From Rhodothermaceae bacterium (GTDB lineage Bacteria; Bacteroidota; Rhodothermia; Rhodothermales; Bin80): a stretch of 64,000 nt of DNA. Positions 9,905 through 35,248 of this stretch are shown here, piece after piece. The position numbers were made by a program, and so were the translations under genes. Location of the stretch: contig VXLY01000067.1 of the NCBI GenBank assembly GCA_009841335.1, forward strand, positions 22,702 through 86,701, read 5' to 3'. Under the pieces are notes generated by a model. The model was not told where the DNA came from, made no database searches, and saw only the letters and a program-made list of their open reading frames with translations. Each line of letters starts with the position of its first letter. Positions within the stretch are counted from its first letter, which is position 1.

Positions 9905-10523
9905 GTGTTTTTATAGGTTGAATTGTCACGCGTCGACCTTTTATCTGAACGCGCCCCTGGGCAATTAAATCAATTGCCTCGGGAAAAATCTTATGTTCAA
10001 CAGCCAAGACACGCTCAGCAAGGGAGTCTGGTGTATCGTTCGGTAGCACGGGCACCTTTTTTTGTAGCAGGATAGGGCCAGTGTCATATTCTTCATCCAC
10101 AAAATGGACCGTCGCTCCGCTGAAAGATTCCTTGGCCTCCAGCACCGCTTTATGTACACGGTGTCCATAGAGCCCTTTACCTCCAAAACGTGGCAGCAGG
10201 GCGGGGTGAATATTCAGGATACGTCCCCAGAAAGCTTCTACAACGAGCGCAGGGATTTTGCATAGATATCCTGCTAGTGCGATCAGGTCGATTCTTTCTG
10301 CATGCAGGAGTTCAAGCAGAGAATTTGCGTACAGTTTGTCGCTCTCAAAAGCTCGGGGAGAGAGCACTTGTGCGGGCACGCTGAGTTCGCGGGCGCGGTC
10401 AAGGACGCCAGCCTTGGGTCTGTTGCAAACCACTAGGGTGACACGATAGTTAAGGGCGTTTTCAGCGATTGCCTGAAAATTTGATCCTCCGCCGGAGGCG
10501 AATACAGCGACACGCAAATTCAT
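9894..10523 (-). CDS. purN: Phosphoribosylglycinamide formyltransferase
   Basis: VAVFASGGGSNFQAI, ILNIHPALLPRFGG, SGATVHFVDEEYDTGPI. Likely start is MNLRV at 10523. Confidence 0.97.
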   Translation of the reverse strand: MNLRVAVFASGGGSNFQAIAENALNYRVTLVVCNRPKAGVLDRARELSVPAQVLSPRAFESDKLYANSLLELLHAERIDLIALAGYLCKIPALVVEAFWGRILNIHPALLPRFGGKGLYGHRVHKAVLEAKESFSGATVHFVDEEYDTGPILLQKKVPVLPNDTPDSLAERVLAVEHKIFPEAIDLIAQGRVQIKGRRVTIQPIKTHDD

Positions 10524-10566
10524 GCACAAGCCATCAGTAATACGCAGGGTTAACAAAAATAGGTCA

Positions 10567-13342: not shown

Positions 13343-13433
13343 TGTGGGATCATACCGCAAATTCCCCGATTATCCGGTTACAGGTTAAGGGAAGGTCAGT
13401 ATCTTGGCACATCACTAGCGTTAGTCTAATCAC

Positions 13434-13682
13434 ATGACCTCCAAACGGTATTGGCGAACTAACCTGCGGTACGTAGGAATACTCCTTGGAATATGGTTTT
13501 TGGTATCATTTGGTGCCAGCGTGCTTCTGGTTGATGTGCTGGATGGGATTCGCATGTTTGGCTTCAAACTGGGGTTCTGGTTTGCACAGCAGGGCGCGAT
13601 ATACGTTTTTGTTGTGATCATTTTTGTATACGTGGTCTTAATGAACCGGCTGGATAAAAAGTCAATTTCGGAAGGGACATGA
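13434..13682 (+). CDS. DUF4212 small membrane subunit of an SSS transporter
   Basis: YWRTNLR...GFKLGFWFAQQGAIYVFV; ATGA overlap with the symporter gene. Confidence 0.88.
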   Translation: MTSKRYWRTNLRYVGILLGIWFLVSFGASVLLVDVLDGIRMFGFKLGFWFAQQGAIYVFVVIIFVYVVLMNRLDKKSISEGT

Positions 13683-15358
13683 CGGTACAGGCATGGACCT
13701 TCATTATGGTGGGGCTCTCCTTTGCACTCTACATCGGAGTTGCCATTTGGTCTCGTGCGGGATCGACGGGAGAGTTCTATGTGGCCGGTGGGCGTGTTCA
13801 TCCCGTACTGAACGGAATGGCTACGGCGGCCGACTGGATGAGCGCAGCTTCGTTTATCTCCATGGCGGGGTTGATAGCGTTCATGGGCAGGGATGGCAGC
13901 GTTTATCTCCTTGGGTGGACTGGGGGATATGTGCTTTTGGCTTTGCTACTGGCTCCGTACCTGCGCAAATTTGGAAAATTTACTGTGCCTGACTTCGTCG
14001 GGGATCGGTACTATTCCCAGACTGCCCGCTTCGTTGCGGTGCTGTGCGCCATTTTTGTGTCGTTCACCTATGTGGCAGGCCAGATGCGTGGTGTGGGTAT
14101 CGTGTTTTCGCGCTTCCTTGAAATTGATATTGTGCTAGGCGTGCTTATAGGTATGGGTATCGTGTTTTTCTACGCTGTACTCGGAGGTATGCGAGGCATA
14201 ACGTATACCCAGGTGGCTCAGTACTGCGTACTCATTTTTGCGTACCTGGTGCCGGCAATTTTTATCTCGCTACTGATGACGGGAAATGTGATTCCCCAAG
14301 TAGGTTTTGGGAGTACGCTGGCGGACGGTTCTGGAACCTACCTATTAGAGAAACTTGATGGTCTTAGCAGGGATCTGGGTTTTGCTGCCTATACGAGCGG
14401 GCAGAAGAGCATGATTGATGTCTTTGCGATCACCGCGGCGCTAATGGTTGGGACGGCAGGTCTGCCCCATGTTATCGTCCGGTTTTACACCGTACCGCGC
14501 ATGCGGGATGCGCGAACAAGTGCGGGCTGGGCGCTTGTTTTTATTGCACTTTTGTACACGAGCGCACCAGCGGTTGCAGCATTTGCCCGAACAAATCTAT
14601 TAACGACCGTTACGGATCAACCCTATTCTGAGGTTCCAGACTGGTTCAAAAATTGGGAGCAGACCGGTCTAATCAAGTTTGAGGATAAAAATGGAGACGG
14701 CAGGATTCAGTATGTCGGGCCGTCGGCAGATAGAGAAAACGAACTCACCATTGATCCCGATATCATGGTTTTGGCCAATCCGGAGATTGCCAGACTTCCC
14801 GGCTGGGTAATCGGGTTGGTTGCGGCAGGTGGACTTGCTGCAGCGCTTTCCACTGCGGCCGGACTGCTATTGGTTATTTCGACGGCGGTTGCCCGTGATC
14901 TCCTCAAAAAAGGCTTTATGCCGGAGATTTCTGAGAAGCGAGAGCTTTTGACTGCACGCATAACTGCGGGGGCTGCTGTAATCATCGCAGGCTATTTTGG
15001 TATTGATCCGCCAGGCTTTGTTGCCCAAGTCGTAGCTTTCGCTTTTGGCCTAGCTGCAGCGTCCTTCTTCCCAGCGATCATCTTGGGGATCTTTACACGG
15101 CGCATGAACAAGTTCGGCGCCGTAAGCGGCATGATTGCCGGCATAGCTTTTACAGCGTGCTACATCGTCTTTTTCAAGTTTATAAGGCCTGACCTGAATG
15201 TTGCAGAGTACTGGCTTTTTGGTATTTCTCCTGAGGGCATCGGAGCGGTGGGGATGGTGCTCAATTTCGTTGTAGCCACCGTGGTCTCGAAATTTACTCC
15301 GCCTCCCCCCGCATCGATTGATGCTCTGATAGACAGGATCCGGGCACCAGGTGACTGA
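13679..15358 (+). CDS. Sodium:solute symporter, ActP-like (acetate/monocarboxylate)
   Basis: EFYVAG, NGMATAADWMSAASFIS, LMVGTAGLPHVIVRFYT; paired with DUF4212. Confidence 0.9.
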   Translation: MTVQAWTFIMVGLSFALYIGVAIWSRAGSTGEFYVAGGRVHPVLNGMATAADWMSAASFISMAGLIAFMGRDGSVYLLGWTGGYVLLALLLAPYLRKFGKFTVPDFVGDRYYSQTARFVAVLCAIFVSFTYVAGQMRGVGIVFSRFLEIDIVLGVLIGMGIVFFYAVLGGMRGITYTQVAQYCVLIFAYLVPAIFISLLMTGNVIPQVGFGSTLADGSGTYLLEKLDGLSRDLGFAAYTSGQKSMIDVFAITAALMVGTAGLPHVIVRFYTVPRMRDARTSAGWALVFIALLYTSAPAVAAFARTNLLTTVTDQPYSEVPDWFKNWEQTGLIKFEDKNGDGRIQYVGPSADRENELTIDPDIMVLANPEIARLPGWVIGLVAAGGLAAALSTAAGLLLVISTAVARDLLKKGFMPEISEKRELLTARITAGAAVIIAGYFGIDPPGFVAQVVAFAFGLAAASFFPAIILGIFTRRMNKFGAVSGMIAGIAFTACYIVFFKFIRPDLNVAEYWLFGISPEGIGAVGMVLNFVVATVVSKFTPPPPASIDALIDRIRAPGD

Positions 15359-15615
15359 GGTTTTGTCGGGGGCATGGCAACCACGATCCAGGATGTGTTT
15401 TTGTGGGCGTATCGGGGCAGGAATCGGACGATGCAGCGGTAATTGAATAAGAGACCGCCTGTGTGTGCTTTCGGGATGGGGCGACCACCGACAGCGGTGT
15501 TCGTGTTCCCCAAGAGTCCGCTGAATAGACGTACGCGCCGCCGCAGAGCTATCACTTACAGGCATAATTCGTCCACATTTCTTAGATTAGTATTTCACAA
15601 CTGTGCTCCAGCGCC

Positions 15616-16083
15616 ATGAATTCCAGATTATTTTTGACAGTAGCCGCTATTATCCTTATTTATTCCGGATGCGTTCCAGCTGACCAGGGAGCCTCCGATG
15701 AAATGGCTCAGATGGGCTCAGATGATTGCCCGAACCTTGCTGGTACCTGGGAATTGGTGGAAATCAGAGAGTCTGCGGGAGCGCTGAGCGGGGAGTTTGA
15801 GAGTGATCCCGAGTACCGGGAGGCACCGACGCTCAAGGTGCTTAACAGCACACACTGGATGTTTATTCGGCAGACCGCCGATGTATTTGTGCACGCGCAG
15901 GGGGGACGGTACACGCTTGATTCCCTGGGGCAGTATACCGAGTATGTGGAGTACAGTGCGATTCCTCAAAATGTCGGCCAGGCATTTGAGTTCAGTTGTA
16001 GCCTCGAGGGCGATTCTCTGTGGCATCATTTGGGTGGCCAAGGTGACGCGCGTTACGATGAAGTTTGGCGCCGCGTACAATAG
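15616..16083 (+). CDS. Hypothetical lipoprotein (lipocalin-like/DUF4488-like beta-barrel)
   Basis: Lipobox IYSG-C, LAGTWELV, GGRYTL...YTEYVEY, EVWRRV. Confidence 0.65.
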   Translation: MNSRLFLTVAAIILIYSGCVPADQGASDEMAQMGSDDCPNLAGTWELVEIRESAGALSGEFESDPEYREAPTLKVLNSTHWMFIRQTADVFVHAQGGRYTLDSLGQYTEYVEYSAIPQNVGQAFEFSCSLEGDSLWHHLGGQGDARYDEVWRRVQ

Positions 16084-16128
16084 TTCAGGTAGTCCGGTAT
16101 CCTTTGCTGATCACCAAATTATTATCGG

Positions 16129-17730
16129 ATGCAGTTTGCTCTGATTGACTACCTTGTGTTCGGTGCTTACTGTCTTCTGATTGTGACGCTGGGGCTATGG
16201 GTCTCGCGAGAGAAGAAGGGGCATGTCAAGAACGCTGAGGACTATTTTCTTGCAAGCAAGTCACTCCCTTGGTGGGCGATCGGTGCTTCGTTAATTGCGT
16301 CTAATATTTCGGCGGAGCAGTTCATTGGAATGTCGGGCTCTGGCTTCCGCCTGGGGTTGGCTATTGCAACCTATGAGTGGATGGCCGCGATCACGCTACT
16401 GCTGGTTGCGTGGTTGTTCATTCCCATCTATTTGAAGAAGGGCATCTACACGATGCCACAGTTTCTGGAGGTTCGCTATGACGCGCGCGTCCGGACTCTC
16501 CTTGCTGTGTTCTGGCTACTGGTGTATGTGTTCGTGAACCTCACCTCCGTTGTTTATCTCGGCGCACTTGCCCTCAGAGACATCATGGGCATCGCCCTTT
16601 GGCAAGGAGTTTTGGCGCTCGCGGTGTTTGCCACGGTGTACAGCATCTACGGGGGACTCAAGGCGGTTGCCTGGACAGATGTGGTTCAGGTATGTTTTCT
16701 GATTGGTGGGGGACTCTTGACCACGGTCCTCGCGCTGAATGCCTATAGCGGGGGAGAAGGTGCTTTTTCTGGGCTCAGCAGATTGCTGAATGAAGTGCCT
16801 GATCGGTTCAACATGATACTTAACCAGGGGGAACTGATCTATACGGATGACGATGGCATACGGCAGGATGCATGGGAGTTACTACCCGGAATTGGTGTAT
16901 TGGTCGGCGGTATGTGGATAGCAAACCTGTTTTACTGGGGGTGCAATCAGTATATCATCCAACGGACGCTGGCTGCACCGAGCTTGAAAGAAGCGCAGCG
17001 CGGCGTTGCTTTTGCAGGCTTTTTGAAGCTGCTTCTGCCTCTGATTGTGGTGGTTCCAGGGATCGTTGCGTATGCACTTGAGGCTCCGATCGGAGCCGCA
17101 GATGAAGCTTACCCCTGGCTTTTGAACGCGTATGTCGGTCCAGGGCTGAAAGGGCTCACGTTTGCAGCACTGATAGCGGCCATTGTCTCTTCTCTGGCTT
17201 CTATGATGAACAGTACGAGCACCATATTCACGATGGACCTGTACCGTAACTACATCCGCCCGAATGCGAGTCAGCGAGACCTCGTGCGTACGGGGAGACT
17301 GGTTGCGCTGGTCAGTATGGCCATAGCGGCATTTCTGGCCCCCCAGTTGGCGTCACTGGACCAAGTATTCCAGTACATTCAGGAATACACAGGGTTCGTC
17401 AGCCCCGGCGTTCTGGCCATTTTCGTACTTGGCTTGTTCTGGAAAAAATCAACTGCCAACGCTGCACTGATTTCAGCTTTACTCAGTATTCCGCTGTCTG
17501 CGGCCATGAAATGGGCCATGCCAGGGATGCCGTTCCTTGACCGGATGGGTTGGGTATTTGTGATCTCCGTGGCATTGATTGTGGTCGTTTCTCTAATTGA
17601 GGGTAGAGGCAAGGATAGTCGCGGGGCAGTTGTTATCAGCCGAAGTGTCATTCAGGCAGATCCGGTGTTTGCTATTCTGGCTTTTGGAATAATGGCGGTA
17701 ACAGCTGCGCTGTACGTGGTTTTCTGGTAA
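16129..17730 (+). CDS. Sodium/sugar symporter (SGLT-like SSS)
   Basis: DYFLASKSLPWWAIGASLIASNISAEQFIGMSGSG, YGGLKAVAWTD, YWGCNQYIIQR. Confidence 0.92.
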   Translation: MQFALIDYLVFGAYCLLIVTLGLWVSREKKGHVKNAEDYFLASKSLPWWAIGASLIASNISAEQFIGMSGSGFRLGLAIATYEWMAAITLLLVAWLFIPIYLKKGIYTMPQFLEVRYDARVRTLLAVFWLLVYVFVNLTSVVYLGALALRDIMGIALWQGVLALAVFATVYSIYGGLKAVAWTDVVQVCFLIGGGLLTTVLALNAYSGGEGAFSGLSRLLNEVPDRFNMILNQGELIYTDDDGIRQDAWELLPGIGVLVGGMWIANLFYWGCNQYIIQRTLAAPSLKEAQRGVAFAGFLKLLLPLIVVVPGIVAYALEAPIGAADEAYPWLLNAYVGPGLKGLTFAALIAAIVSSLASMMNSTSTIFTMDLYRNYIRPNASQRDLVRTGRLVALVSMAIAAFLAPQLASLDQVFQYIQEYTGFVSPGVLAIFVLGLFWKKSTANAALISALLSIPLSAAMKWAMPGMPFLDRMGWVFVISVALIVVVSLIEGRGKDSRGAVVISRSVIQADPVFAILAFGIMAVTAALYVVFW

Positions 17731-17764
17731 TCCAGGGGCAGAGACGATAGTTTTTTGGATTTCT

Positions 17765-17793
17765 TTGAGTGATTTATTATTTATTGTTATATT
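17765..17793 (+). promoter_or_regulatory. Sigma70-type promoter for the TonB receptor operon
   Basis: -35 TTGAGT (17765-17770), 17-bp spacer, extended -10 TGn-TATATT (17788-17793). Confidence 0.55.
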
Positions 17794-17843
17794 AGTATGT
17801 CGTGTTGGCTCCGGTTCGGCATCGGCTGGTCGCTTAATGCGCA

Positions 17844-17857
17844 TGAAAGCGTTTCCA
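17844..17857. promoter_or_regulatory. LacI-family/cre-like operator
   Basis: TGAAAGCGTTTCCA fits TGNAANCGNTTNCA and lies between the promoter and the ATG at 17935. Confidence 0.55.
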
Positions 17858-17934
17858 AGGCTTGTAAAGCCATATCTGGCGCCCTGTGTTTGTTGCGGGA
17901 CGCCTTAAACATGAACTAAACTTAGGATTGAATT

Positions 17935-20900
17935 ATGAGACTAAAAGGGTTACTGGGTGTAGCTGTGATGCTGATCCTTACCGTGCCGGTCGTGTTTGCC
18001 CAACAGGGCAAGATTGATGGCGTGGTGACCGATGCTGCCACGGGAGAGACCATTCCCGGAGCAAGTGTTAGGATTGAGGGCACTACTCAGGGAACAGCAA
18101 CGCAGGTAGACGGCTACTTCTTCATCAATAATGTGCGTCCAGGTACCTACACGCTGGTCGTTTCGTTTGTAGGATTTTTGGACCAGAGAGTAGAGGGTAT
18201 TCGGGTTTCTACCGGACTGACAACTACCAGGAACATTCAAATCCGAGAAGAGGCGGTTGGGCTTGAAGAGATCGTGGTCACAAGTGAACGTCCCATTGTG
18301 CAGTTGGATGTGTCTGCCAATGTGGCCAGTCTCAACCCCGAGGCTTTTCAAGATCTCCCGGTGGCCGGTGTCAGTGAGGTACTTGACCTCCAGGCCGGTA
18401 TTGAGCCGGGGCTGCGCGTACGTGGTGGAGGTCTGAATGAAGTTGCTTTTGTGGTTGATGGCATGAATTTGCGGACCGGTCGCTCGCATCAACCATTCAC
18501 GAACATCAGCTACACTTCACTGGAGGAAGTACAGGTCCAGACAGGAGGTTTCAACGCAGAGTACGGAAACGTACGGAGTGGTATCGTGAACGTTACTACC
18601 AAAGAGCCTTCCCGGACACGCTACACCTTTGACGCACTGTATCGGTATCAACCCGCCCAGCCAAAGTCTCTTGAAGGCTTGGGAGGTACGAATCTGGACA
18701 ATTGCAATTACTCCGGTCCGGTAACGGGGGACTGTGATAGCTGGTTCGTTCGCCCGTTCCTTGACCCGGCAGTGGCTTGGGAAGGCACCGGTAATGGCGC
18801 ATGGGATCCCTATACACAGAACCAGTACAATGCTTTTGAGGGCTGGAACGCACTCGCTGACCGGCTTCTGAATGACGAGGGTTTTGATGTTACTGCTCAG
18901 GATATGCAGGAATACTTCAAGCATACCCATCGCAAGGACAACGAGATCACCATGCCGGACTATGAGGCGGATGTTACCTTGGCTGGCCCACTGGTTCCCG
19001 GCCTTAGCAACAGACAGGGTGTTCCAGACGCATTCAGTAGCCTGCGCTTCTCTGTATCCTACAGAGGTACGCAGACTGCTTATATCTATCCTCAGAGCCG
19101 AGAAGCTTTCAAGAATCAGACATTCCAAGGCAAGTTGATCTCAAACGTTGCGCCAGGAATGAAGCTGAGTGTGCAGGGTATGAAGGGTGTAGAGCGCGGC
19201 ATCAACCGTTCTCAGGGGAGCGCAGATCTCCGAATGTACGGTGGGCAAATGCCGTCTTATCCATGGTGGGGTGCCGGAGCAGAGATCGTTGATGGTATCA
19301 ACCGCCGTGGACGTGTGATTCTGTCTGATGGTGCGTTCCCGCTCGCCAATGTTGACCACACTCTACTCGGAGCCACATTCACGCACACGCTTAGTGCGAG
19401 CACCTTCTACGAAGTTCATCTGCAGAATATTGCGTCAAAGTACCGCAGTCATTTTCCGAATCTTCGTGATGGCTCATATACGGAAGACGGTGTCTTCTAC
19501 CCGGTTCCTTACACCAATAACTTTGGTCGGCTAACTCCCGCGGGCGAGGCAAACAGGGACCAGGTAACCTGCTTTGGTGGTGCTGGAGATCTCAATGGAG
19601 ACGGCGTGACAACCCCGTATTGTGTTGGGGATGAACCGTTTGGATTTTTGGGGCAGGGCGGTAACCTGCTCGGCGGTGCCGAGACCACCGGTGGTCACTG
19701 GGTGAAGACTCGAGACACTTCTGATGTGAGTGTATTTACCGGTCGGTTTGACTTGACCAGTCAGGTAACCCGGGTGCTTCAGCTCAAAACGGGTGCAGAA
19801 CTTATTATCAGCGATTACGATCTGAATTACAAGAGAGTAAACCTTGCATTGGTGGGGCCGGAAGCCGAGGCCGATTATCCACTCTCACGCCAACCCATCC
19901 AAGGTGCAGCCTATGCACAGGGTAAGCTGGAATTCCAGGGCATGATCGCCAACCTTGGTGTGCGCATAGACTTCTTTGATGCGAATACAGCCTGGTGGGT
20001 AGCGGAGAACCCGTATGATCAGGCTTTCCGGCAGCGAGTGGAAGGTTTGGATGAACTGCTGAGCAAAGAGGATCCGGCGGCACAGATATTCATAAGCCCC
20101 CGGTTGGGTATCTCCTTCCCGATCACGCAGGAAAGCAAGCTTTATTTCAACTACGGCCATTTCCGTCAAATGCTGAACCCATTTGATGTGTTTGGTATTC
20201 AGCAGTCGCGCAACAGTGGTATTGATGTAATGGGTAACCCAGACCATCCAATGCCCCAGACTGTGGCGTATGAGTTGGGATTTGACCAGAACCTCTTTGA
20301 CCAGTACTTGCTGAGGGTCAGCGGTTTCTATCGTGATATCCGCAATCAGCCTCGTAATGTTACCTACAATAGCCTGGGTGGTGTCGTGAACTATGCGATC
20401 AAGCAGCCCTGGAATTATGAGGATGTACGTGGGGCAGAAATCACATTGACCAAGCTGCGCGGGGACTGGGTTCGGGGATTTGTCAACTACACCTTCCTGC
20501 AGACCAAAGGCGGCAACTTTGGCTACAGCCAATTCAACGAGAACACCTTCCAGCAGCGGAACTATTTACGGACCTCGACGGACTACCGTATTGGGGCTCC
20601 ATTGGCTGAGCCGTTTGCCCGTGCAAACGTGCTCTTCTTGACGCCGACTAGTTTTGTGCCTTCTTTGTTAAATGGTTCATTGCTGGGAGATTGGCGCGTA
20701 AGCCTGCTAGGCGAATGGCGTGCAGGTCAGAAATGGAGATGGGCAGGCGGTGGCGGTGCACCTCCCGAATTGCAGGAGAATGTACGCTGGCGGAGCTATG
20801 TTAATTTTGATCTTCGCTTCACGAAGCATGTCAATACGCGATTCGGCGGTGCACAGATCTTCCTTGATGTGTCTAACCTCTTCAATCGCCGCCATCTGTA

Positions 20901-21336
20901 CAGTGCCACCGGGTTCCATCCAGATGGTAGAGATTTTGACCGCTACATGTGGTCGCTGCACCTGCCGGAAGACATCTTTGATCAGATGAATGCGGTCGAC
21001 GAGAATTTGTCGTATGCCGACAAACAGGGACTTCCCTATGTATGGGTTCCCGGCGATGATCGGCCAGGTGTATTCCGTCATCCCGATGTAGCCTATCAGC
21101 CAATCGAAGCTTTTAAATCACTTGATGGCGTCAGTGAACCCAATACTGTAGCTTGGTACTGGGCAGCCGACACCGGCACGTATTCTCGCTGGAATGGATC
21201 CAGCTTTGTAGCTGTGCCGGACGGTGAGGTACAGCAGGTACTTGATGACAAAGCATACATTGATATGCCGAACCTGCGGTTCAACACATTCTTGAACAAT
21301 CGTCGACTCACTTTGGGTATTCGTGTAACCTTATAA
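17935..21336 (+). CDS. TonB-dependent receptor with N-terminal carboxypeptidase-regulatory-like domain
   Basis: Signal peptide, GKIDGVVTDAATGETIPGASV, plug VRGGGLNEVAFVVDG and TGGFNAEYGNVRSGIVN, SPRLGISFPI, terminal beta-strand RRLTLGIRVTL. Confidence 0.92.
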   Translation: MRLKGLLGVAVMLILTVPVVFAQQGKIDGVVTDAATGETIPGASVRIEGTTQGTATQVDGYFFINNVRPGTYTLVVSFVGFLDQRVEGIRVSTGLTTTRNIQIREEAVGLEEIVVTSERPIVQLDVSANVASLNPEAFQDLPVAGVSEVLDLQAGIEPGLRVRGGGLNEVAFVVDGMNLRTGRSHQPFTNISYTSLEEVQVQTGGFNAEYGNVRSGIVNVTTKEPSRTRYTFDALYRYQPAQPKSLEGLGGTNLDNCNYSGPVTGDCDSWFVRPFLDPAVAWEGTGNGAWDPYTQNQYNAFEGWNALADRLLNDEGFDVTAQDMQEYFKHTHRKDNEITMPDYEADVTLAGPLVPGLSNRQGVPDAFSSLRFSVSYRGTQTAYIYPQSREAFKNQTFQGKLISNVAPGMKLSVQGMKGVERGINRSQGSADLRMYGGQMPSYPWWGAGAEIVDGINRRGRVILSDGAFPLANVDHTLLGATFTHTLSASTFYEVHLQNIASKYRSHFPNLRDGSYTEDGVFYPVPYTNNFGRLTPAGEANRDQVTCFGGAGDLNGDGVTTPYCVGDEPFGFLGQGGNLLGGAETTGGHWVKTRDTSDVSVFTGRFDLTSQVTRVLQLKTGAELIISDYDLNYKRVNLALVGPEAEADYPLSRQPIQGAAYAQGKLEFQGMIANLGVRIDFFDANTAWWVAENPYDQAFRQRVEGLDELLSKEDPAAQIFISPRLGISFPITQESKLYFNYGHFRQMLNPFDVFGIQQSRNSGIDVMGNPDHPMPQTVAYELGFDQNLFDQYLLRVSGFYRDIRNQPRNVTYNSLGGVVNYAIKQPWNYEDVRGAEITLTKLRGDWVRGFVNYTFLQTKGGNFGYSQFNENTFQQRNYLRTSTDYRIGAPLAEPFARANVLFLTPTSFVPSLLNGSLLGDWRVSLLGEWRAGQKWRWAGGGGAPPELQENVRWRSYVNFDLRFTKHVNTRFGGAQIFLDVSNLFNRRHLYSATGFHPDGRDFDRYMWSLHLPEDIFDQMNAVDENLSYADKQGLPYVWVPGDDRPGVFRHPDVAYQPIEAFKSLDGVSEPNTVAWYWAADTGTYSRWNGSSFVAVPDGEVQQVLDDKAYIDMPNLRFNTFLNNRRLTLGIRVTL

Positions 21337-21348
21337 AAGCTTGAAGCA

Positions 21349-21380
21349 GGGCGCCTGCCTCGGAATCAGGACAGGCGCCC
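21349..21380 (+). other. Intercistronic GC-rich stem-loop
   Basis: GGGCGCCTG...CAGGCGCCC inverted repeat with no U-tract directly after it. Confidence 0.55.
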
Positions 21381-21413
21381 GCTGATGGTTTTCATTTTTA
21401 ATCTAGCAAGCTC

Positions 21414-23756
21414 ATGAAAATCAGTTACTACATGAAAGCACTTTCGGCTGGACTGTTATTGTTCACCTTCGTGCCAATGGCTGCCACGGCCCAGTTCACT
21501 GCACAATGGCTGGATATTGGCACATTCCACAGCACATGGACAGAGTCAGGAGCCCAGCATGAAGGTAATTCGTCTGCCGCGGATGGTATGGAATGGCCCT
21601 CCATTCTGCGTAACAGCAGTCACTTCAGGGCCAAAGCACTTTGGCTGGGTACAAAGGACTGGACAGATGCCAACGGACAATCCTTCCCATACTTCGTAGC
21701 CCGGATTGGTCCTCGGACGGCCGGTGCGGATGTGACGTACCCAGTACAAAATGTGCTTATTAGCAAGACGGAGGACACTGTTGTGGAGGTGGATGGAGCC
21801 CTGTCGTTCGACAATGTCGCTGTTGTTGACGAGATAGATCCAGGGCTTCCGGCCGACCGAATGGTGCATAACGTCCACAATACATATATCGGCGTTACGG
21901 TAGATCGGAGGGCATACGCCTATGTCAATCAGGCTCACGATGACTATAACATCATTGAGTACATTTACACCAACACCGGAAACGTGGACGAAGACGAGGA
22001 TATCGAACTTCCGAATCAGAACTTGAAAGATACGTACTTCTTCCGCATCCACCGGTGGAGGGGAAATCTGCAGGGTGCCTGGACAGTCAGCGGTGGCATG
22101 GTTTGGGGCAAGTTCAGCATGATTGACGTCGTCGGAGATGGACATGCAGAGTACCCGATCACATTTACCTCACAGTACCTGTGGATTGGTATTGATCCTG
22201 AAACACAGGGAGACTATGATCGCTTTGGTGGGTCCCTTTTCAACGAGGCCTGGTGGGCACCTCCGGCTGATTCGATTGGACGCTTGACCGGGGCTAGTTA
22301 CATTGGTCGGGCAACAATTCATGCCGACAACTCGCCCACGGATTCCCGCTACATTCGCTGCACCATGGCTACCATAGAGACCTGTCAGCCTGCGACCATG
22401 GGCTTTATGGACTCTGACGAAGCACTGACAGCTGACGGTAGTTCTCACGAAGATTATTACGAGTGGGGGATTCGGACGCGTGAGAATCCTGACCGTATTG
22501 ATGGTGGGTCCCAGCATATGTGGCCGCATTATGCTGACCGTATTGAGCCTAGCGGCATATTCTGGGAGGCCAAGAATGACGCCTCCACGGGTAAGCAGGG
22601 CGGTCACGCTGTCACGACAGCTTATGGCCCCTACGATTTTGCCCCAGGTGAAAGTGTTCGGCTCGTGGTCGTTGAAGGTGTGGGCGGATTGACCATTGAT
22701 GCCAGTGTCAGGATTGGCAGGGCATTTAAGCTTGGTGGATTGGATCGCGATTCAGACCTGATCCGCTATGATGCAAATGGGGATGGAATGATTCAGACCG
22801 GTACTTTCGATCATTCCATCAATCAGATGGATATGGATGGCGATGGAATGTTTGATACATTCGGCCATGGATTGGAGGAGATGACCAAGAATCAGTGGGT
22901 TGTAACTGCACGTGATTCGATGTTGCAGACGCTGCAGCGGGGAATTAACCTCTATGCAGCCAGCAATAACATGAGTGCTTATCCAATTCCCGAAGCACCT
23001 CATGCTCCCACGACCTTCAGTGTTGTCGGTCGTCCGGACAAAGTTGAAGTCAGATGGACGAATCCTGCGGGGGGACCTTCGCGCACAAAATGGCTACTCT
23101 ATCGGACCTCCCGGTATGAGGACTACATTTACGAAAGCTGCCTGAACCTTGACTCACAGCAGTATACGGATGGCTCAAATCCAAGAGATCCGGCGGATCC
23201 CAGTGCGTCTGGTCAGCAGCACTGCGGCTACGAAATGATCGCGTCGCTGGATGCCGGAGCAAATTCCTATGATGATACAGACCTCAACAGGGGAACGGAC
23301 TACTACTACTATCTACAGGCCGTTGGTGGACCGCAGCCTATGGATCCAGATGGTATTTCTGGAACGCCAACAGGCGCACCACTTCGCAGCTCTCGCTCCC
23401 TCACACAGACCTATCAGCCTGTTAACCTGAAACGCCCCGCGTATGGGTCAACCGGCACTGTGGAGGATGCACGTATCGTACCTAACCCGGTTAATCTCGG
23501 CGCAGATGCTACTGTAAGGTTCGATCAAGAGGACCGTGTTGCATTCTTCAATATCCCGGGTAACTGTACGATCAAGATCTATACCGAGATTGGAGAATTG
23601 GTCCACACCATTGAGCATAATGACGGTAGTGGTGATGAGCTATGGAACTTGACCACCACATCTCGTCAGTTGCTTGTGAGCGGTATCTACATTGCTGTTA
23701 TTTCAGACAATGACACGGGTGACGAAGCGATTCGAAAATTCACGGTAATCCGGTAG
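21414..23756 (+). CDS. Large secreted protein with FN3-like domain and T9SS-like C-terminal sorting domain
   Basis: Signal peptide ending ATA-Q; FN3-like KVEVRW...SYDDTDLNRGTDYYYYLQAV; CTD ARIVPNP...NCTIKIYTEIGELV...WN...SGIYI...KFTVIR; DxDxDG motifs. Confidence 0.75.
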   Translation: MKISYYMKALSAGLLLFTFVPMAATAQFTAQWLDIGTFHSTWTESGAQHEGNSSAADGMEWPSILRNSSHFRAKALWLGTKDWTDANGQSFPYFVARIGPRTAGADVTYPVQNVLISKTEDTVVEVDGALSFDNVAVVDEIDPGLPADRMVHNVHNTYIGVTVDRRAYAYVNQAHDDYNIIEYIYTNTGNVDEDEDIELPNQNLKDTYFFRIHRWRGNLQGAWTVSGGMVWGKFSMIDVVGDGHAEYPITFTSQYLWIGIDPETQGDYDRFGGSLFNEAWWAPPADSIGRLTGASYIGRATIHADNSPTDSRYIRCTMATIETCQPATMGFMDSDEALTADGSSHEDYYEWGIRTRENPDRIDGGSQHMWPHYADRIEPSGIFWEAKNDASTGKQGGHAVTTAYGPYDFAPGESVRLVVVEGVGGLTIDASVRIGRAFKLGGLDRDSDLIRYDANGDGMIQTGTFDHSINQMDMDGDGMFDTFGHGLEEMTKNQWVVTARDSMLQTLQRGINLYAASNNMSAYPIPEAPHAPTTFSVVGRPDKVEVRWTNPAGGPSRTKWLLYRTSRYEDYIYESCLNLDSQQYTDGSNPRDPADPSASGQQHCGYEMIASLDAGANSYDDTDLNRGTDYYYYLQAVGGPQPMDPDGISGTPTGAPLRSSRSLTQTYQPVNLKRPAYGSTGTVEDARIVPNPVNLGADATVRFDQEDRVAFFNIPGNCTIKIYTEIGELVHTIEHNDGSGDELWNLTTTSRQLLVSGIYIAVISDNDTGDEAIRKFTVIR

Positions 23757-23764
23757 CTGTGTTA

Positions 23765-23801
23765 GCAAGGCGCTCTGGCTGCACAGGGCAGAGCGCCTTG
23801 C
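23765..23801 (+). other. Intercistronic stem-loop
   Basis: Perfect 13-bp arms GCAAGGCGCTCTG / CAGAGCGCCTTGC. Confidence 0.6.
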
Positions 23802-23831
23802 AACACGCAACCCTATAAGACAAACGATGCA

Positions 23832-24899
23832 ATGAAAAAGCACTACTTCTTTTCAATACTGACGGTCGCCGCACTCCTGCTTGGCAGTGCTTCGATTACA
23901 TATGGTCAGGCAGGCCTAACCCCGGATACTGAGGTGGAAACGGACAAGCGCGCCCAGACCGGAATGAAATTCCTGAGCACATCGGTGGATGCCCGCGCTT
24001 CTGCTATTGGTTCAGCGCTGACTGCCGAGATGGTCGGTTCTTCGACTTCAATGTTCTACAATCCTGCGAGTATGGGCTTCATGGTGGGGCGTATGCATGC
24101 AGCTGCAACCAGTATGAGCTTTATCGCAGATATCGGCTATACACAGGCCAGTATTGCGTTCCGTCCTGGTTCAGGGGGCAACTTTGGTGTAGTTGGTGTA
24201 TCACTGGTTTCGGTGGATTATGGCGACTTCAACTATAACGTTCGTGCCAACAATGAAGATGGATTTGTGCAGTTGGGAACCTATCAACCCACGGCCATGG
24301 CTGTGGGCCTGGGGTACGCCAGATCATTTGGTGACCGTTTCTCGGCGGGCGCCAACGTTAAGCTCGTTTTCCAGGATCTAGGTTCAGGATTTGCGACTTC
24401 CCAGGAATTTGATACCGGGGCTGTTACTACAACAGAGGACTACAGCGCACAGACAGTAGCATTTGATTTCGGTATTGTGTATGCCACCGGGTTTGAGAGC
24501 TTGGTTATCGGAATGAGCGCGCGTAACTTTGCCCAGGAGCAAACCTATGTGCGGGAAAGGTTTGAGTTGCCGCTGACCTTCCAGATCGGAATGTCAATGA
24601 ACTTGGTTGACCTTACCTCCATGGATCCAGACATGCACAGCATTCAGCTTCATGTCGATGCCCAGCGTCCCAGAGACTTTTCTGAGCATGTTCGTTTCGG
24701 AGTGGAATACACACTTATGGATATAGTGTCCATTCGAGGTGGGTTTGAGCAACTGGGCGTGAGCGAAGAGCAGGGATTGAGTGCTGGCGCCGGACTTCGG
24801 TATGAGTTCGGAAACGTCCGTGTTGGGGCAGACTACGCATATACCCAGTTTGGTGTCTTCGGCACGGTGAACCGCATTGGCCTCCAGATTGGTCTCTAA
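23832..24899 (+). CDS. PorV/PorQ-family outer-membrane beta-barrel
   Basis: AQTGMKFLSTSVDARASAIG, SMFYNPA, AVGLGYAR...FSAGANVK, DYAYTQFGVFGTVNRIGLQIGL. Confidence 0.85.
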   Translation: MKKHYFFSILTVAALLLGSASITYGQAGLTPDTEVETDKRAQTGMKFLSTSVDARASAIGSALTAEMVGSSTSMFYNPASMGFMVGRMHAAATSMSFIADIGYTQASIAFRPGSGGNFGVVGVSLVSVDYGDFNYNVRANNEDGFVQLGTYQPTAMAVGLGYARSFGDRFSAGANVKLVFQDLGSGFATSQEFDTGAVTTTEDYSAQTVAFDFGIVYATGFESLVIGMSARNFAQEQTYVRERFELPLTFQIGMSMNLVDLTSMDPDMHSIQLHVDAQRPRDFSEHVRFGVEYTLMDIVSIRGGFEQLGVSEEQGLSAGAGLRYEFGNVRVGADYAYTQFGVFGTVNRIGLQIGL

Positions 24900-24944
24900 A
24901 ACGAAAAATCAATTCATTCCTGAGTAACTAGTATTCAGGTTAAT

Positions 24945-24984
24945 AGCGGAGAATTGGGGTTATGCTCCAATTCTCCGCTTTTTT
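24945..24984 (+). terminator. Rho-independent terminator after the PorV-family gene
   Basis: 13-bp stem AGCGGAGAATTGG / CCAATTCTCCGCT followed by a T run. Confidence 0.8.
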
Positions 24985-24990
24985 CTAGAG

Positions 24991-26706
24991 ATGAGATATT
25001 CGGTCGACCACGTACTCATCTGTGGAGTGGCTTGTGTGATTGCGGCATTGTCTGGATGTGAGAACGCTCCGCCCCCCGAGCTCTCCGACAAACCCATTGG
25101 TTTCACCGAGGTCACCGCCGACGCGGGCCTTGGAGCCTTCCGACATGATAACGGTGCGGATGGAAAGAAATACTACGCGGAGCAAATGGGGTCAGGTGCA
25201 GGATTTATTGACTATGACGGCGATGGCTGGCTAGACATCTTGCTTCTGGGCGGCGGGTACTGGGATCGCGCCCCGCATGCGTGGTACCAATCATTTTGGA
25301 TGTATCGCAATATGGGGGATGGCACATTTGAGGAGGTAACGGACGAGGTGGGCTTGGGGCAACTTTATGCCTTCACGCTTGGCGTGGCAACAGCTGACTT
25401 CGACAATGACGGAGACCAGGATATTCTGGTGACGAATCTCAATGAAAACATGCTCTTGGAAAACAAGGGCGGTGTGTTTGAACACATAAAATCGAGTCTA
25501 GGCTTCCACGATGAATGGAGTAGCTCAGCGCTGTGGATAGATACTAATCGTGATGGATGGCTGGATGTTTACGTAGGCAATTACGCAGACTGGAGCCCGA
25601 CGCGCGACAAGTTCTGCCCCGAGGGGGGTATGGTTAAGCTCTACTGCGTTCCCGCGGATTATGAGGGCATATCCAGTCGGTACTTTGAAGCCAGGGGTGA
25701 TGGCGTGTTCGTTGAGCGAACGCACGAGGCCGGTATTTACCACCCGCTGGGAAAGGCCCTTGGTATGGCAGAGTGGGATTTCGATCGTGATGGCTGGCCC
25801 GACTTTGTTGTGGCTAATGATGGTGAAGGAGACCTGCTGTTCATGAACAATCAGGACGGCACATATTCCGAGCGAGGGGTACAGAGTGGGATCGCTTTCA
25901 GTGAGCATGGGGAGGCCCGTGCAGGAATGGGTATTGATATTGGGGTGATGGATGAAACCGGAGAACCATCAGTTTTTGTGGGTAACTTTTCCACGGAAAT
26001 GATCGGTGTGTACCGTTATTTGGGCAACGGGCTGTTTAGCGATCGCGCGGCCAGGTCCCGTATTGGTCAACCGAGCCTGAATACGCTCACCTTCGGATTA
26101 ATGGTGCTCGATGTCGACCTGGATGGCGACCTGGACTTGTTTGTTGCAAACGGACACGTATATCCAGATCGGTTGGTAGGGCAGGATAAGATTACCTATG
26201 AACAGCGGGCACAGTTGTTCGAGAACGTTGGCAGCGGATTCTTTGAAGAGGTCTCCCCTTCAACGACGCCACCTCTGGAGATAGAAATGGTTGCTCGAGG
26301 TGCGGCCTACGGAGATTATGACCGTGATGGTGACCCGGATATCTTGATCGTCGAGAACGGCGGTCCGGCGCGTTTATGGCGCAATGATGTGACTGGGCGG
26401 AATTGGTTACGCGTTACTGTTACGGGGACCGAGGGGAATCGCGATGCCTTTGGTACTCACGTCCGCGTGTATGCGGGAGATCGGATTCAGGAGCGTCGCA
26501 TTCGTTCGGGGTCCAGTTATCTCTCCCAAAATGAGGTGGTTGCTACATTTGGCTTGATGGATAGTCAGGCAATTGACAGCGTTCGTGTGGATTGGGCCGC
26601 CGGAGGCTCCCTGACACTGCAGGATGTGCCCATCAACACAGAGGTTCACGTTACTGAGGGTCAGCAGGGTTGGATCGAACGTTCGATGCCCGGGGCGGCC
26701 AAATAG
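24991..26706 (+). CDS. CRTAC1-family lipoprotein (FG-GAP/VCBS repeats + ASPIC/UnbV), copy 1
   Basis: Lipobox LSG-C, repeated DYDGDGWLD-type motifs, RGAAYGDYDRDGD, SGSSYLSQ. Confidence 0.88.
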   Translation: MRYSVDHVLICGVACVIAALSGCENAPPPELSDKPIGFTEVTADAGLGAFRHDNGADGKKYYAEQMGSGAGFIDYDGDGWLDILLLGGGYWDRAPHAWYQSFWMYRNMGDGTFEEVTDEVGLGQLYAFTLGVATADFDNDGDQDILVTNLNENMLLENKGGVFEHIKSSLGFHDEWSSSALWIDTNRDGWLDVYVGNYADWSPTRDKFCPEGGMVKLYCVPADYEGISSRYFEARGDGVFVERTHEAGIYHPLGKALGMAEWDFDRDGWPDFVVANDGEGDLLFMNNQDGTYSERGVQSGIAFSEHGEARAGMGIDIGVMDETGEPSVFVGNFSTEMIGVYRYLGNGLFSDRAARSRIGQPSLNTLTFGLMVLDVDLDGDLDLFVANGHVYPDRLVGQDKITYEQRAQLFENVGSGFFEEVSPSTTPPLEIEMVARGAAYGDYDRDGDPDILIVENGGPARLWRNDVTGRNWLRVTVTGTEGNRDAFGTHVRVYAGDRIQERRIRSGSSYLSQNEVVATFGLMDSQAIDSVRVDWAAGGSLTLQDVPINTEVHVTEGQQGWIERSMPGAAK

Positions 26707-26708
26707 CG

Positions 26709-28373
26709 ATGCGGAACTCAGGCTTGCTTTTTTTGTGTTTATTGTTTCTCGTCGGATGTGCAACCCGGCCATCGGAGGACTCAGATGACACGGGTCACCT
26801 GTTTACTGATGTGACAGAACAGGCAGGACTGAGCGGAGTACTGCACACGAATGGTGGTTTCGGAGATTCCTGGGCACCGGAAATAGTTGGTGCGGGTGGG
26901 GCGTTTATTGATTATGACGGCGATGACCAGCAGGATATTCTTGTAGTTACCGGCGGTGCATTCGAGGGAGAACCTCCACTTGGTGCGCATCCAGCGCTGA
27001 GACTTTTTCGCAATATGGGAAATGGAACGTTTGCTGAGGTTACGCAGCCTGCTGGTTTGGCACTCTTGCGCAGCTATAGCCTAGGGGTAACGATCGGAGA
27101 CTACGACAATGATGGGGATCAGGATATCTATGTGACAAATCTAGGCCCAGACTTGTTGTTACGTAACACTGATGGTGTATTCGAGGATGTTGGCCAGGCA
27201 GCAGGTGTGGGCGTAATAAGTGAGTGGAGTACTAGCGCAATGTTCTTTGATGCCAATCTTGATGGGCATCTAGATATCTATGTTGGAACGTATGTACACT
27301 GGACGCCCGAAGATGATATTTACTGCAGTTTTGGTGGAAGCAAAGTTTACTGTACTCCCGAACTCTATGAGGGTATTGCGAGTCGCTACTATGAAAACCA
27401 GGGTGATGGTACGTTTACAGAAGCTACGGCAAGAGCGGGTTTCCTGACGGGTGTGGAGGCCATCCGGGATAAGACACTGGGGGTCGCGGAGATGGATGCG
27501 AACGGTGATGGGTGGCCTGACGTAGTTGTGGCTAACGACACAGAACGAGATATGCTCTTCATTAATCAGGGCAATGGTTCGTTCATTGAACGCGGAATCA
27601 CGAGTGGAATAGCCTACGATCAGCACGGCAAACCCAGGGCGGGTATGGGCATAGATGTTGGCGTCGTGGATGATTCTGGGGAGCCCTCCATATTCGTCGG
27701 AAATTTTTCGGATGAGATGGTGGGTGTATACCAGCACATGGGAGGCGGCATTTTCAGGGATCGGGCATCGGCCTCACGTATAGGGCAACCTAGCTTCAAG
27801 ACATTAACTTTTGGTTTAGTGCTTTTTGACGTAGACCTGGATGCAGATTTGGATCTGTTGATTGCGAATGGACATGTGCAGACGCACATTGCACAGATTG
27901 TGGACGGTGTCACTTTTCGTCAGCGACCTCAGTTGTTCCTGAATGATGGGACAGGGATATTTGCTGAGATGCCACCAGCCGGTTTATTAGCTGAATCCTT
28001 TGTAGGGCGTGGGCTTGCCACTGGGGACTATGATCGGGATGGGGATTTAGACGTGTTAATAGTAGAAAACAATGGTCCGATACACCTCTGGCGCAATGAA
28101 TCACAGGGGCGATCATGGCTTCGGGTTGAACTCATAGGCACGGAAAGCAACCGAAATGCATATGGCGCTCAGCTCCACCTCTGGACAAATGGCCAGATGC
28201 AGGTTCGGCGCATACGCGCGGGATCAAGCTATCTTTCTCATTCAGAAACAGCAGCGTTCTTTGGATTTGACGGCACTCCAGACAGTTTGCACATACGGTG
28301 GCCAAGCGGCAAAGAATCTCGGGAACATGAATTGGGGATAAATTCCAGACTACTAATTGTAGAAGATGAGTAG
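26709..28373 (+). CDS. CRTAC1-family lipoprotein, copy 2
   Basis: Likely start MRNSGLLF at 26709, lipobox LVG-C, FG-GAP repeats, AGSSYLSH. Confidence 0.88.
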   Translation: MRNSGLLFLCLLFLVGCATRPSEDSDDTGHLFTDVTEQAGLSGVLHTNGGFGDSWAPEIVGAGGAFIDYDGDDQQDILVVTGGAFEGEPPLGAHPALRLFRNMGNGTFAEVTQPAGLALLRSYSLGVTIGDYDNDGDQDIYVTNLGPDLLLRNTDGVFEDVGQAAGVGVISEWSTSAMFFDANLDGHLDIYVGTYVHWTPEDDIYCSFGGSKVYCTPELYEGIASRYYENQGDGTFTEATARAGFLTGVEAIRDKTLGVAEMDANGDGWPDVVVANDTERDMLFINQGNGSFIERGITSGIAYDQHGKPRAGMGIDVGVVDDSGEPSIFVGNFSDEMVGVYQHMGGGIFRDRASASRIGQPSFKTLTFGLVLFDVDLDADLDLLIANGHVQTHIAQIVDGVTFRQRPQLFLNDGTGIFAEMPPAGLLAESFVGRGLATGDYDRDGDLDVLIVENNGPIHLWRNESQGRSWLRVELIGTESNRNAYGAQLHLWTNGQMQVRRIRAGSSYLSHSETAAFFGFDGTPDSLHIRWPSGKESREHELGINSRLLIVEDE

Positions 28374-30042: not shown

Positions 30043-30199
30043 CCTATTCATAAATATCCTATTGAAACCGGATACGCGCGTCTGCATAAGCTTCTAGGAT
30101 CCACATACCAGGATAAGGCATCGGTGGGGTATGCATATAGTGCCATCGTCCGGTGGTGACCTGGTTGCGACGATTTGAAATGATTCCTTCCACGGTACA

Positions 30200-35072: not shown

Positions 35073-35248
35073 AACGGTCAGTGATTGCTGTTGCGTTACC
35101 ACTGGACTGGTCAGTTGTTCATCAGCATGCATTGCCGAAATATCACGATGGCAGCCAGACAAAAACCAATTCGACGGTTCCAGGTGGCGTTAGGTTGAGG
35201 AAGCAGTTAATCTGAGATACCAAAGAATGATGCACGGCACCGGTATCG

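Follow-up and report, generated by a model that had tools for sequence, protein, structure and literature searches.

A recurrent gene triad of TonB-dependent receptor, putative type IX secretion cargo and PorV-family barrel in a Rhodothermaceae genome

The triad and the closest described systems

SusC/SusD pairs (SusCD, RagAB) are the textbook machines of glycan capture in Bacteroidota; many related lineages that are abundant in ocean, sediment, hot-spring and sponge habitats carry few SusD genes or none. Here we analyse a 64-kb stretch of DNA from a Rhodothermaceae bacterium (assembly GCA_009841335.1, contig VXLY01000067.1, positions 22,702 to 86,701 of the forward strand; hereafter the window), in which three co-oriented genes at 17935-24899 encode a TonB-dependent receptor, a protein whose tail resembles the C-terminal domains (CTDs) of type IX secretion system (T9SS) substrates, which we call the cargo, and a barrel of the PorV/PorQ family:

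17935-21336, + strand, TonB-dependent receptor gene (open reading frame (ORF), 1133 aa)
21414-23756, + strand, cargo gene (ORF, 780 aa)
23832-24899, + strand, barrel gene (ORF, 355 aa)

The intergenic gaps are 77 nt (receptor/cargo) and 75 nt (cargo/barrel). Orientation, location and barrel family are exactly as described in an earlier interpretation made from the nucleotide letters and their translations (the sequence-only reading). Our best reading, to which we assign a probability of roughly 0.55, is that the three genes form one unit, a single copy of a multi-copy TonB-dependent uptake module.

The triad is like SusC/SusD systems in that its receptor has a carboxypeptidase-regulatory-like N-terminal domain and a plug, the gene of a surface accessory protein lies directly downstream, and the unit is multi-copy, with sister triads beside secreted carbohydrate-active enzymes (CAZymes) and sulfatases. 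In contrast to SusC/SusD, however, the receptor scores below the SusC/RagA cut-off and groups separately from the SusD-linked SusC proteins of the same genome, the accessory protein is an all-beta non-lipoprotein, a third gene (the barrel) is obligatory, and export of the cargo would be by the T9SS, as opposed to lipoprotein surface export. The logic of the triad also resembles TbpA-TbpB-Slam of Proteobacteria, in which a TonB-dependent receptor and a surface binding protein come with a dedicated outer-membrane barrel for display. The proteins themselves are unrelated, however: there, a lipoprotein does the binding, and Slam acts as a translocon instead of an anchor.

In the PorQ-PorZ and PorV-PorU pairs of P. 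gingivalis, a PorV-family barrel holds a surface protein by its uncleaved CTD, the CTD of PorZ being retained on PorQ and that of PorU on PorV (PMC10202324, cited from excerpts). The triad is similar to these pairs in its cargo tail, which best matches PorZ, and in its barrel, which favours the PorQ model over the PorV model. The triad barrels nevertheless fall below the equivalog cut-offs, and the genome has its own PorQ, PorZ, PorU and PorV elsewhere. The triads, moreover, are present in at least 11 copies with variable heads, each with a TonB-dependent receptor, and imply no role in cargo attachment.

Type B CTDs with PorP/SprF-like shuttles (SprB-SprF, Fjoh_3952-Fjoh_3951) share with the triad the order of a cargo gene followed by its own barrel gene. 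Cognate CTD/shuttle pairs are encoded side by side, the specific pairing sets the final location of the cargo, and three-gene operons with a third envelope partner (the PorE-cargo-shuttle operons of F. johnsoniae) are proposed to form static complexes (PMC12618676, excerpts). The triad differs in that its barrel is of another family, its tail is type-A-like and its third partner is a TonB-dependent receptor; according to the same paper, type A tails all use PorV, and TonB has no mention in it. In BamG-BamH of the Bacteroidota BAM complex, the loops of a FadL/PorV-like 14-strand barrel bind a surface protein, and the barrel is packed on a larger one (PMC12578637, excerpts). Unlike the triad, this is a different machine with a lipoprotein, BamH, and its authors deem a PorV-like function of BamG unlikely (PMC12578637).

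We found no description of a unit of receptor, CTD protein and PorV-like barrel in the full-text literature, subscription journals and supplementary files lying outside that search; a Caldithrix paper mentions TonB only for B12 and thiamine. Every type of component is known, and it is their combination that appears new: a receptor clade, a private barrel, a retained-type tail and interchangeable heads, in many copies and in several lineages.

Copies, conservation and co-divergence

The genome (3.49 Mb, 121 contigs) has 17 matches to the PorV family model, 15 of them over the cut-off. Combining blastp with a listing of gene neighbourhoods, we found ten complete triads, on contigs C67 (the window), C52, C62, C4, C57, C92, C40, C111, C117 and C1, the receptor of the last being cut by the contig end. 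Further parts are a cargo and barrel at the end of C36 and a receptor with the N-terminus of a cargo at the end of C54, giving at least 11 triads overall. The head of the C54 cargo shares 87% identity with that of a C9 cargo that has a tail. The contig ends of C9, C21, C36 and C54 carry nearly identical pieces of other triad genes, which suggests recent duplicates that broke the assembly.

A cargo homologue is present in all 41 related genomes searched, 24 from the same family (the window's own counted) and 17 from other families of the order. In a library of 1.84 billion proteins the cargo family comprises 1553 representative clusters at E ≤ 1e-3 and 221 at E ≤ 1e-30. Species-representative genomes were scanned with a sequence pattern; of 555 stretches matched, 533 proved to be relatives, and we compared the 80 best loci. 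A triad was called where the receptor ended no more than 600 nt upstream of the cargo and the barrel started no more than 600 nt downstream, on the same strand, with hidden Markov models (HMMs) built from the window genome. The order receptor-cargo-barrel was found in 73 of these 80 loci. Four of the other seven have a contig end beside the cargo gene, two (L100 and L123) have all three genes by blastp but outside the 600-nt distance, and one (L113) has only ~818 nt upstream of the cargo. Most of the 80 are labelled Rhodothermales; the labels also include Candidatus Marinimicrobia/Neomarinimicrobiota/Fidelibacterota, KSB1 and Ignavibacteriales, and a few oddly labelled bins (Planctomycetes, Halobacteriales, Weeksellaceae, Deferribacteres) are taken to be mis-binned. 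With at least 11 copies in one genome and 73 of 80 related loci, the arrangement is far beyond chance, and the conservation on which the sequence-only reading depended extends over several lineages. In a complete Fidelibacterota chromosome, 7 of the 11 PorV-family barrels examined (of 13 matches) sit in triads; one Ignavibacteriales genome has 24 PorV-family matches.

Across ten triads, receptor, barrel, CTD and head give identity matrices that correlate (Mantel r 0.70-0.81, p ≤ 4e-4, 5000 permutations; C36, which lacks the receptor, was left out). The triads therefore diverged as units; the correlation shows co-inheritance, not contact.

The 1133-aa protein belongs to the TonB-dependent receptor class, defined by a plug and a large beta-barrel. 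It has a signal peptide, a CarbopepD_reg_2 domain (74.7 bits) and a Plug domain (PF07715, 30.5 bits against a cut-off of 23.9). Its barrel is too divergent for PF00593, and residues 470-1000 align with the other TonB-dependent receptors of the genome; a sequence search of the PDB matched the N-terminal domain alone. The SusC/RagA model TIGR04056 gives 69.3 bits against a cut-off of 368.25 and covers model positions 2-144 of 981 only, which places the protein outside that family. Its C-terminal residue is L, a position that in TonB-dependent receptors is usually aromatic. In a quick IQ-TREE phylogeny of 25 of the 29 receptor-like ORFs of the genome (those below 700 aa were left out), a single group (SH-aLRT 95) comprises the nine triad receptors of full length and that of C54, and both SusD-linked SusC genes fall outside it.

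The genome holds two SusD genes only, one of which directly adjoins the C62 triad. In the window, a Pfam scan found neither SusD nor glycoside hydrolase between 11466 and 32654, in agreement with the sequence-only reading. Sister triads are flanked by a secreted alpha-amylase, a GH38 enzyme, two sulfatases, a heparinase-II/III-like protein, lamin-tail/LamG proteins and SurA-like peptidyl-prolyl isomerases (PPIases), and many of the flanking proteins have ordinary Por_Secre_tail domains and no private barrel.

Cargo domains, barrel and predicted docking

The cargo can be divided into four parts:

21414-21494, + strand, signal peptide, residues 1-27, signal-peptidase-I type with cleavage at ATA/QF (read from sequence)
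21495-22823, + strand, head, residues 28-470, predicted galactose-mutarotase-like beta-supersandwich (AlphaFold2 model and structure search)
22992-23333, + strand, FN3 domain, residues ~527-640 (profile matches; strands 534-640 in the model)
23460-23756, + strand, C-terminal domain, residues ~683-780, putative variant T9SS CTD, PorZ-like (profiles, Foldseek, docking prediction)

The lipobox Cys is absent, so the cargo is a non-lipoprotein, and the FN3 domain matches the profiles of 3mpc (E 9e-7) and of the PelI Fn3 in 3b4n; both features had been read correctly from the translation. An AlphaFold2 model of the whole cargo, based on an alignment of 85 full-length-like rows chosen among 150 listed matches, is mainly beta, with a predicted local distance difference test score (pLDDT) of 87.5 and a predicted TM-score (pTM) of 0.89; the head folded alone reaches 91.3 and 0.93. 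The modelled head aligns best with residues 36-276 of a bacterial glucoamylase (1lf6_A; Z 18.2, root mean square deviation 3.0 Å, 235 residues aligned; VIA), followed by the N-terminal domains of GH94, GH15, GH116 and GH65 enzymes (Z 14-17) and by aldose 1-epimerases (Z 11-12.7). All 50 structural matches, from Z 18.2 down to ~11 against a tool background of 7-8, have the galactose-mutarotase-like fold, and Foldseek agrees. The head model thus falls within the galactose-mutarotase-like, glycoside-hydrolase-type supersandwich fold class, a resemblance of fold and not of sequence. Neither Pfam, NCBIfam nor PDB yields a sequence match to the head, no Pfam family matches the whole cargo above threshold, and a search of the ESM Atlas with the head returned only ‘hypothetical’ clusters (Zixiibacteriota, Fidelibacterota, Gemmatimonadota).

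The sequence-only reading had cast the cargo as a substrate-binding lid over the receptor in the manner of SusD. The modelled fold lends no support to a SusD-like lid, as a beta-supersandwich with FN3 differs from the helical SusD-like proteins; Pfam gives no match of the cargo to SusD/RagB (PF07980, PF14322), there is no lipobox, and the model is mainly beta. The same earlier text had named a released enzyme with a recognisable catalytic fold as a finding that would refute its reading. The structure search gives the head no such fold: the top matches of the head are always non-catalytic N-terminal domains of multidomain enzymes, whose catalytic domains the cargo lacks. Among 85 aligned homologues only Gly160, Gly405 and Pro406 are invariant in the head, and no Asp, Glu, His, Ser or Cys is invariant there. 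From these two lines of evidence the head would be a binding module rather than an enzyme.

We consider it improbable that the 780-aa protein is itself an enzyme, mutarotase-like or of a novel carbohydrate-active kind, which is displayed or secreted and processes the substrate before uptake instead of serving as a binding subunit. The supersandwich is catalytic in aldose 1-epimerases, polysaccharide utilization locus (PUL)-type loci commonly encode surface enzymes, and sister triads stand beside CAZymes. This reading fits poorly, however, with the best matches (Z 14-18) being non-catalytic, with the Gly and Pro invariance and lack of family matches described above, and with the heads of other triads, which are unrelated.

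Sequence comparison indicates that cargo heads vary and that a PorZ-like tail of ~100 aa is common to all. The cargos of the nine sister triads and of C36 have no Pfam family at E ≤ 1e-4 (0 of 10). A second cargo group of five proteins (1090-1293 aa) is related to the window cargo family through the tail only, with an hhalign probability of 99.3% (E 1.1e-20) over 102 columns and nothing else aligned. An HMM of the tail has 13 strong matches in the genome (its ten training sequences and those on C36, C21 and C9), after which there is a gap down to PorU and PorZ at E ~1e-7.

The tail was earlier described as a variant T9SS sorting domain, and a likeness to such domains is indeed seen. It scores 16.7 bits on TIGR04183 (cut-off 23) and 17.7 on CHU_C (cut-off 27), and PF18962 (cut-off 27 bits) has no match to the cargo at E ≤ 0.01. 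The best model is the PorZ C-terminus, NF052228, with 31.1 bits over residues 682-780; the tail profile matches residues 668-758 of PorZ in 5m11 (E 1e-4), and 5m11 is also the top Foldseek match of the whole cargo model. By its sequence, the tail carries VPNP...GxY...K motifs and is type-A-like, these motifs being what we take to be the marks of type A. The profile scores point to a distinct subclass with a real resemblance to T9SS CTDs. Ordinary type A cargos coexist with variant-tail cargos in this genome: 13 proteins beside triads or in the window score 24.5-43.5 bits on PF18962, 11 of them at least 27. A leucine-rich-repeat protein and an arylsulfotransferase-like protein in the window (33096-35162 and 61094-62815, both on the - strand) have standard Por_Secre_tail domains.

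The window barrel scores 176.6 bits on the PorV/PorQ family model NF033709 (cut-off 90), over model positions 1-324 of 326, and is thus a member of that family; ten sister barrels score 113.8-215.3 bits. It is below both equivalog cut-offs and closer to PorQ (NF033711, 91.5 against 220) than to PorV (NF033710, 50.8 against 250). It is of the 14-strand outer-membrane type, and its profile matches F. johnsoniae PorV (6h3i_F, E 8.5e-13). The PorP/SprF model TIGR03519 (cut-off 90.55) has no match to the window barrel at E ≤ 0.01 and gives 23.2 and 25.5 bits on two sister barrels. The general components of the T9SS are encoded elsewhere in the genome:

C79, PorU (Peptidase_C25) adjoining PorV (PorV 303.6 bits, above cut-off)
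C60, PorQ-like (217.4 bits)
C58, PorV2-like (264 bits)
C8, PorZ (394.3 bits)
C33, SprA (1694.8 bits)

The possibility that the window barrel is the general PorV of the genome, which would have undone the idea of a dedicated barrel, is ruled out by the genuine PorV next to PorU on C79. As a separate observation, C113:17948-21459 (L029) encodes a BNR/sortilin-like protein with an FlgD_ig-type tail, followed by two tandem PorV-family barrels and no receptor; it may be another kind of cargo/private-barrel unit.

We predicted the docking of barrel residues 26-355 with cargo residues 525-780, using a barrel alignment of 28 rows (26 from 77 listed barrel matches, the window barrel and the C52 paralogue). 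The prediction reaches an ipSAE of 0.88 (runs 0.90, 0.88 and 0.88), whereas the highest of three controls gives 0.00; contacts coincide between runs in at least 81% of cases, with partner pLDDT of at least 75. Among solved complexes 58 of 80 attain the mark used, as do 2 of 110 mismatched pairs, a calibration that is rough only, since custom alignments were used here. In the predicted interface, tail residues 687-780 lie on the N-terminal segment 39-50 of the barrel and on barrel loops. Of 41 invariant barrel positions, ~10 fall in this interface against ~7 expected (hand count), a difference too small to be informative. Because solved PorV-substrate complexes exist (8gl6 series), the pass shows a likeness to the PorV-substrate binding mode, not that the pair binds. 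The earlier proposal that the cargo is held by its own PorV paralogue gains support from adjacency, joint divergence, the common tail and this predicted docking.

It is highly improbable, in our view, that the barrel is instead a FadL-type channel, or a structural partner to the receptor in the way that BamG is to BamA, with an ancestral likeness to PorV and with the tail an ordinary cleaved signal. PorV, BamG and FadL are all 14-strand barrels of common descent, and BamG has both BamA and a surface protein as binding partners (PMC12578637); two sister barrels have weak BamG matches (35.6 and 25.7 bits), and one triad is flanked by FadL-like genes. Against this, the PorV/PorQ family scores are high for all triad barrels, and what all cargos have in common is precisely the domain with the predicted barrel contacts.

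The docking bears also on whether the barrel is a dedicated T9SS shuttle only, which pulls the variant-CTD cargo from the SprA translocon as PorP/SprF does for type B. The cargo would then be released or fixed to lipopolysaccharide and act at a distance, either in binding or as an enzyme, and the receptor would import the products, with no stable three-part assembly. A transient shuttle complex fits the predicted docking as well as a permanent anchor does, and adjacency and co-divergence do not discriminate between the two; for type B CTDs, adjacent cargo/shuttle pairs are an established arrangement, and secretion there needs the shuttle (PMC12618676). We nevertheless hold a shuttle-only role to be rather unlikely. 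A strict three-gene unit with a dedicated receptor clade exceeds the needs of cargo and shuttle, ordinary type A cargos, often beside triads, do with a Por_Secre_tail and no private barrel, and the tail resembles those of PorZ and PorU, two cargos known to keep their CTD.

Proposed role and gene neighbourhood

We hypothesize that the cargo crosses the outer membrane by the T9SS and that its variant CTD, more than a disposable signal, remains attached to the dedicated barrel on its extracellular side, as the predicted docking would allow. The barrel-held tail would display the variable head at the cell surface, here a glycan-binding-like beta-supersandwich on an FN3 stalk. The head would capture a substrate, probably an oligo- or polysaccharide, and pass it to the co-encoded receptor for TonB-dependent import. 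We lean, by a little, towards this picture, in which the T9SS exports a capture protein, its own barrel anchors it, and the co-encoded receptor is the one that it serves. With about the same confidence, we think that the module fills the role that SusD or surface glycan-binding lipoproteins have for SusC, without a lipoprotein and in SusD-poor lineages.

For the relation to SusD we used 151 genomes sampled evenly from the GTDB phylum, with 13-14 candidates scored per genome. PorV-family matches number 2-6 in many families and 9-14 in the window's order, its class and several other families; first-look candidates reach 33 per genome. With family f27 (31 genomes) removed, PorV-family and SusD counts are anticorrelated over 120 genomes (Spearman -0.55) and over 40 family medians (-0.43). 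Of 70 genomes with at least nine PorV-family matches, 53 have two SusD genes or fewer and one has eight or more, and 22 of the 47 genomes with six PorV-family matches or fewer have at least eight SusD genes. The complementarity is suggestive only.

The stretch or part of it occurs in 20 of 24 listed sequencing runs, all 20 labelled sponge metagenome, from nine studies and including eight RNA libraries; four of the 20 may be the source of the window DNA. Contigs from four metatranscriptome libraries of one study, mapped on 13300-32000, cover 17863-24897 and differ from the window by 1-2%. Both gene junctions are bridged, that of receptor and cargo by, for example, 18819-23677 and 19261-23743, and that of cargo and barrel by 19966-24275 and 23743-24835. 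The contigs begin at 17863-17890 and end at 24835-24897. Over 13300-17667 and 25156-32000 there is little or no cover, which is not evidence of silence or termination.

Several points weigh against the proposed role. The link of cargo or barrel to the receptor is drawn from indirect evidence, and we infer, rather than observe, that the tail is retained and not cleaved and that the substrate is of the class named. Dependence on the T9SS is likewise read from likeness, because the tail reaches no curated T9SS-CTD threshold; indirect indications are the full T9SS of the genome and the predicted docking on the barrel. Memory of the 8gl6-series PorV-substrate complexes may account for the docking pass, which used custom alignments. 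The fold of the head is catalytic in aldose 1-epimerases, so that an enzymatic role is possible, and the immediate neighbours of the triad are lipoproteins, not CAZymes. The anticorrelation with SusD vanishes (rho 0.01) when f27, with few or none of either gene, is kept; related genomes are non-independent in these counts, which rest on the 13-14 candidates scored in each. The RNA evidence consists of assembled contigs from one study, which cannot prove a single transcript, its start or its end.

More tentatively, and with odds somewhat short of even, the triad may represent a third kind of TonB-dependent nutrient-capture machine, a stable assembly of receptor, PorV-like barrel and T9SS-exported protein in which the CTD is a permanent non-covalent anchor and the heads give specificity. 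It would correspond, in function and evolution, to SusCD among lineages not reliant on surface lipoproteins, its proposed carriers being Rhodothermia, Ignavibacteria, Fidelibacterota/Marinimicrobia, KSB1 and probably further lineages of the Fibrobacterota-Chlorobiota-Bacteroidota (FCB) group. If so, it would explain the 10-30 PorV paralogues in these genomes, and nutrient uptake would join secretion among the core roles of the T9SS. A function would be gained for these paralogues and for many unannotated proteins (this head family alone has the 1553 representative clusters), and the idea of T9SS CTDs as address labels read by cognate barrels would be widened. The triad could also serve, like SusC/SusD pairs, to predict substrate-utilisation loci in metagenomes. 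Interest would be high if the three proteins form one complex that replaces SusCD.

The signals and genes around the triad are as follows:

13679-15358 and 16129-17730 (span 13679-17730), + strand, two sodium:solute symporter genes around a DUF4488 lipoprotein gene (Pfam)
17765-17793, + strand, sigma-70-like promoter candidate, TTGAGT-17-TATATT with TG before the -10 element (consensus match)
17844-17857, + strand, LacI-family-type palindromic operator candidate TGAAAGCGTTTCCA, 78 nt ahead of the start of the receptor gene
24945-24979, + strand, hairpin resembling an intrinsic terminator (stem of 16 bp, loop of 3 nt, T-run), just past the barrel gene
24991-26706, 26670-28373 (probable start ~26709) and 28366-30042, + strand, three tandem FG-GAP/UnbV_ASPIC lipoprotein genes (Pfam; lipoboxes LSGC, LVGC and SAGC)
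30200-31465, + strand, TPR lipoprotein gene (lipobox AAGC), often kept after the FG-GAP genes

A promoter/operator and a terminator had been proposed to bound the triad, and candidates for all three are present. Promoter-like sites number 18 in the region against 17.1 expected from shuffles, so that the one at 17765-17793 counts as a consensus match only. The palindrome TGAAAGCGTTTCCA perfectly matches TGNAANCGNTTNCA, which we take to be the LacI-family operator consensus, and is the sole match in the window (0.10 expected); a Pfam scan of the window found no LacI gene. With varied N positions, a LacI-type palindrome is near the receptor start in 13 of 63 examinable related loci, 12 of them close orthologues, in each case no more than ~220 nt upstream of the called start (L047 just inside). 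Genome-wide there are 11 matches, for example C27:5180, C33:24697, C74:76 and C89:62547, most of them outside long ORFs; judged by sequence, these sites may mark a small regulon that includes the window triad.

The upstream gene had been read as a sugar symporter. Sodium:solute symporters are indeed present, but NF007790 gives 375.7 bits, below its cut-off of 401 and too low to establish a sugar substrate. These genes are tied to the triad only in close relatives, in some but not all loci with a cargo at least 76% identical. In 43 of the 80 related loci (hand count), including Fidelibacterota- and Neomarinimicrobiota-labelled ones, the barrel gene is followed by an FG-GAP/ASPIC homologue on the same strand; loci of the C52-type sister subfamily lack it. 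The sequence-only reading mentioned neither these four lipoprotein genes, kept with this subfamily, nor the multiple copies of the triad. The FG-GAP/ASPIC and TPR lipoproteins may be further surface or periplasmic parts of this system.

The mature N-termini of all three triad proteins begin with Gln after the predicted cleavage (AQ/Q.., ATA/QF and YG/QA, the slash marking the cleavage), which fits the ‘Bacteroidetes Q-rule’ (PMC5837995, title and abstract). SurA-like PPIase genes with Rotamase domains stand directly beside three long-cargo triads, C117 (L021), C111 (L025) and C92 (L024), and may encode dedicated periplasmic chaperones. The C57 triad (L022) has FadL/Toluene_X-like barrels on both sides (373-2013 and 9168-10568), followed by a heparinase-II/III-like T9SS cargo.

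Further along the window, 36346-39880 (- strand) holds a second SusD-less pair, a 797-aa TonB-dependent receptor (CarbopepD_reg_2 and Plug) and then a DUF4249 protein, with a sulfatase gene at 39892-41655 just before it. The region 41652-59760 (- strand) encodes four tandem pairs of PSCyt1/PSCyt2/PSD1 proteins (Planctomycete-type; three with LamG) and DUF1501 sulfatase-like proteins, together with a PSCyt1/DUF2231 membrane protein, an expansion unusual for a Rhodothermales genome.

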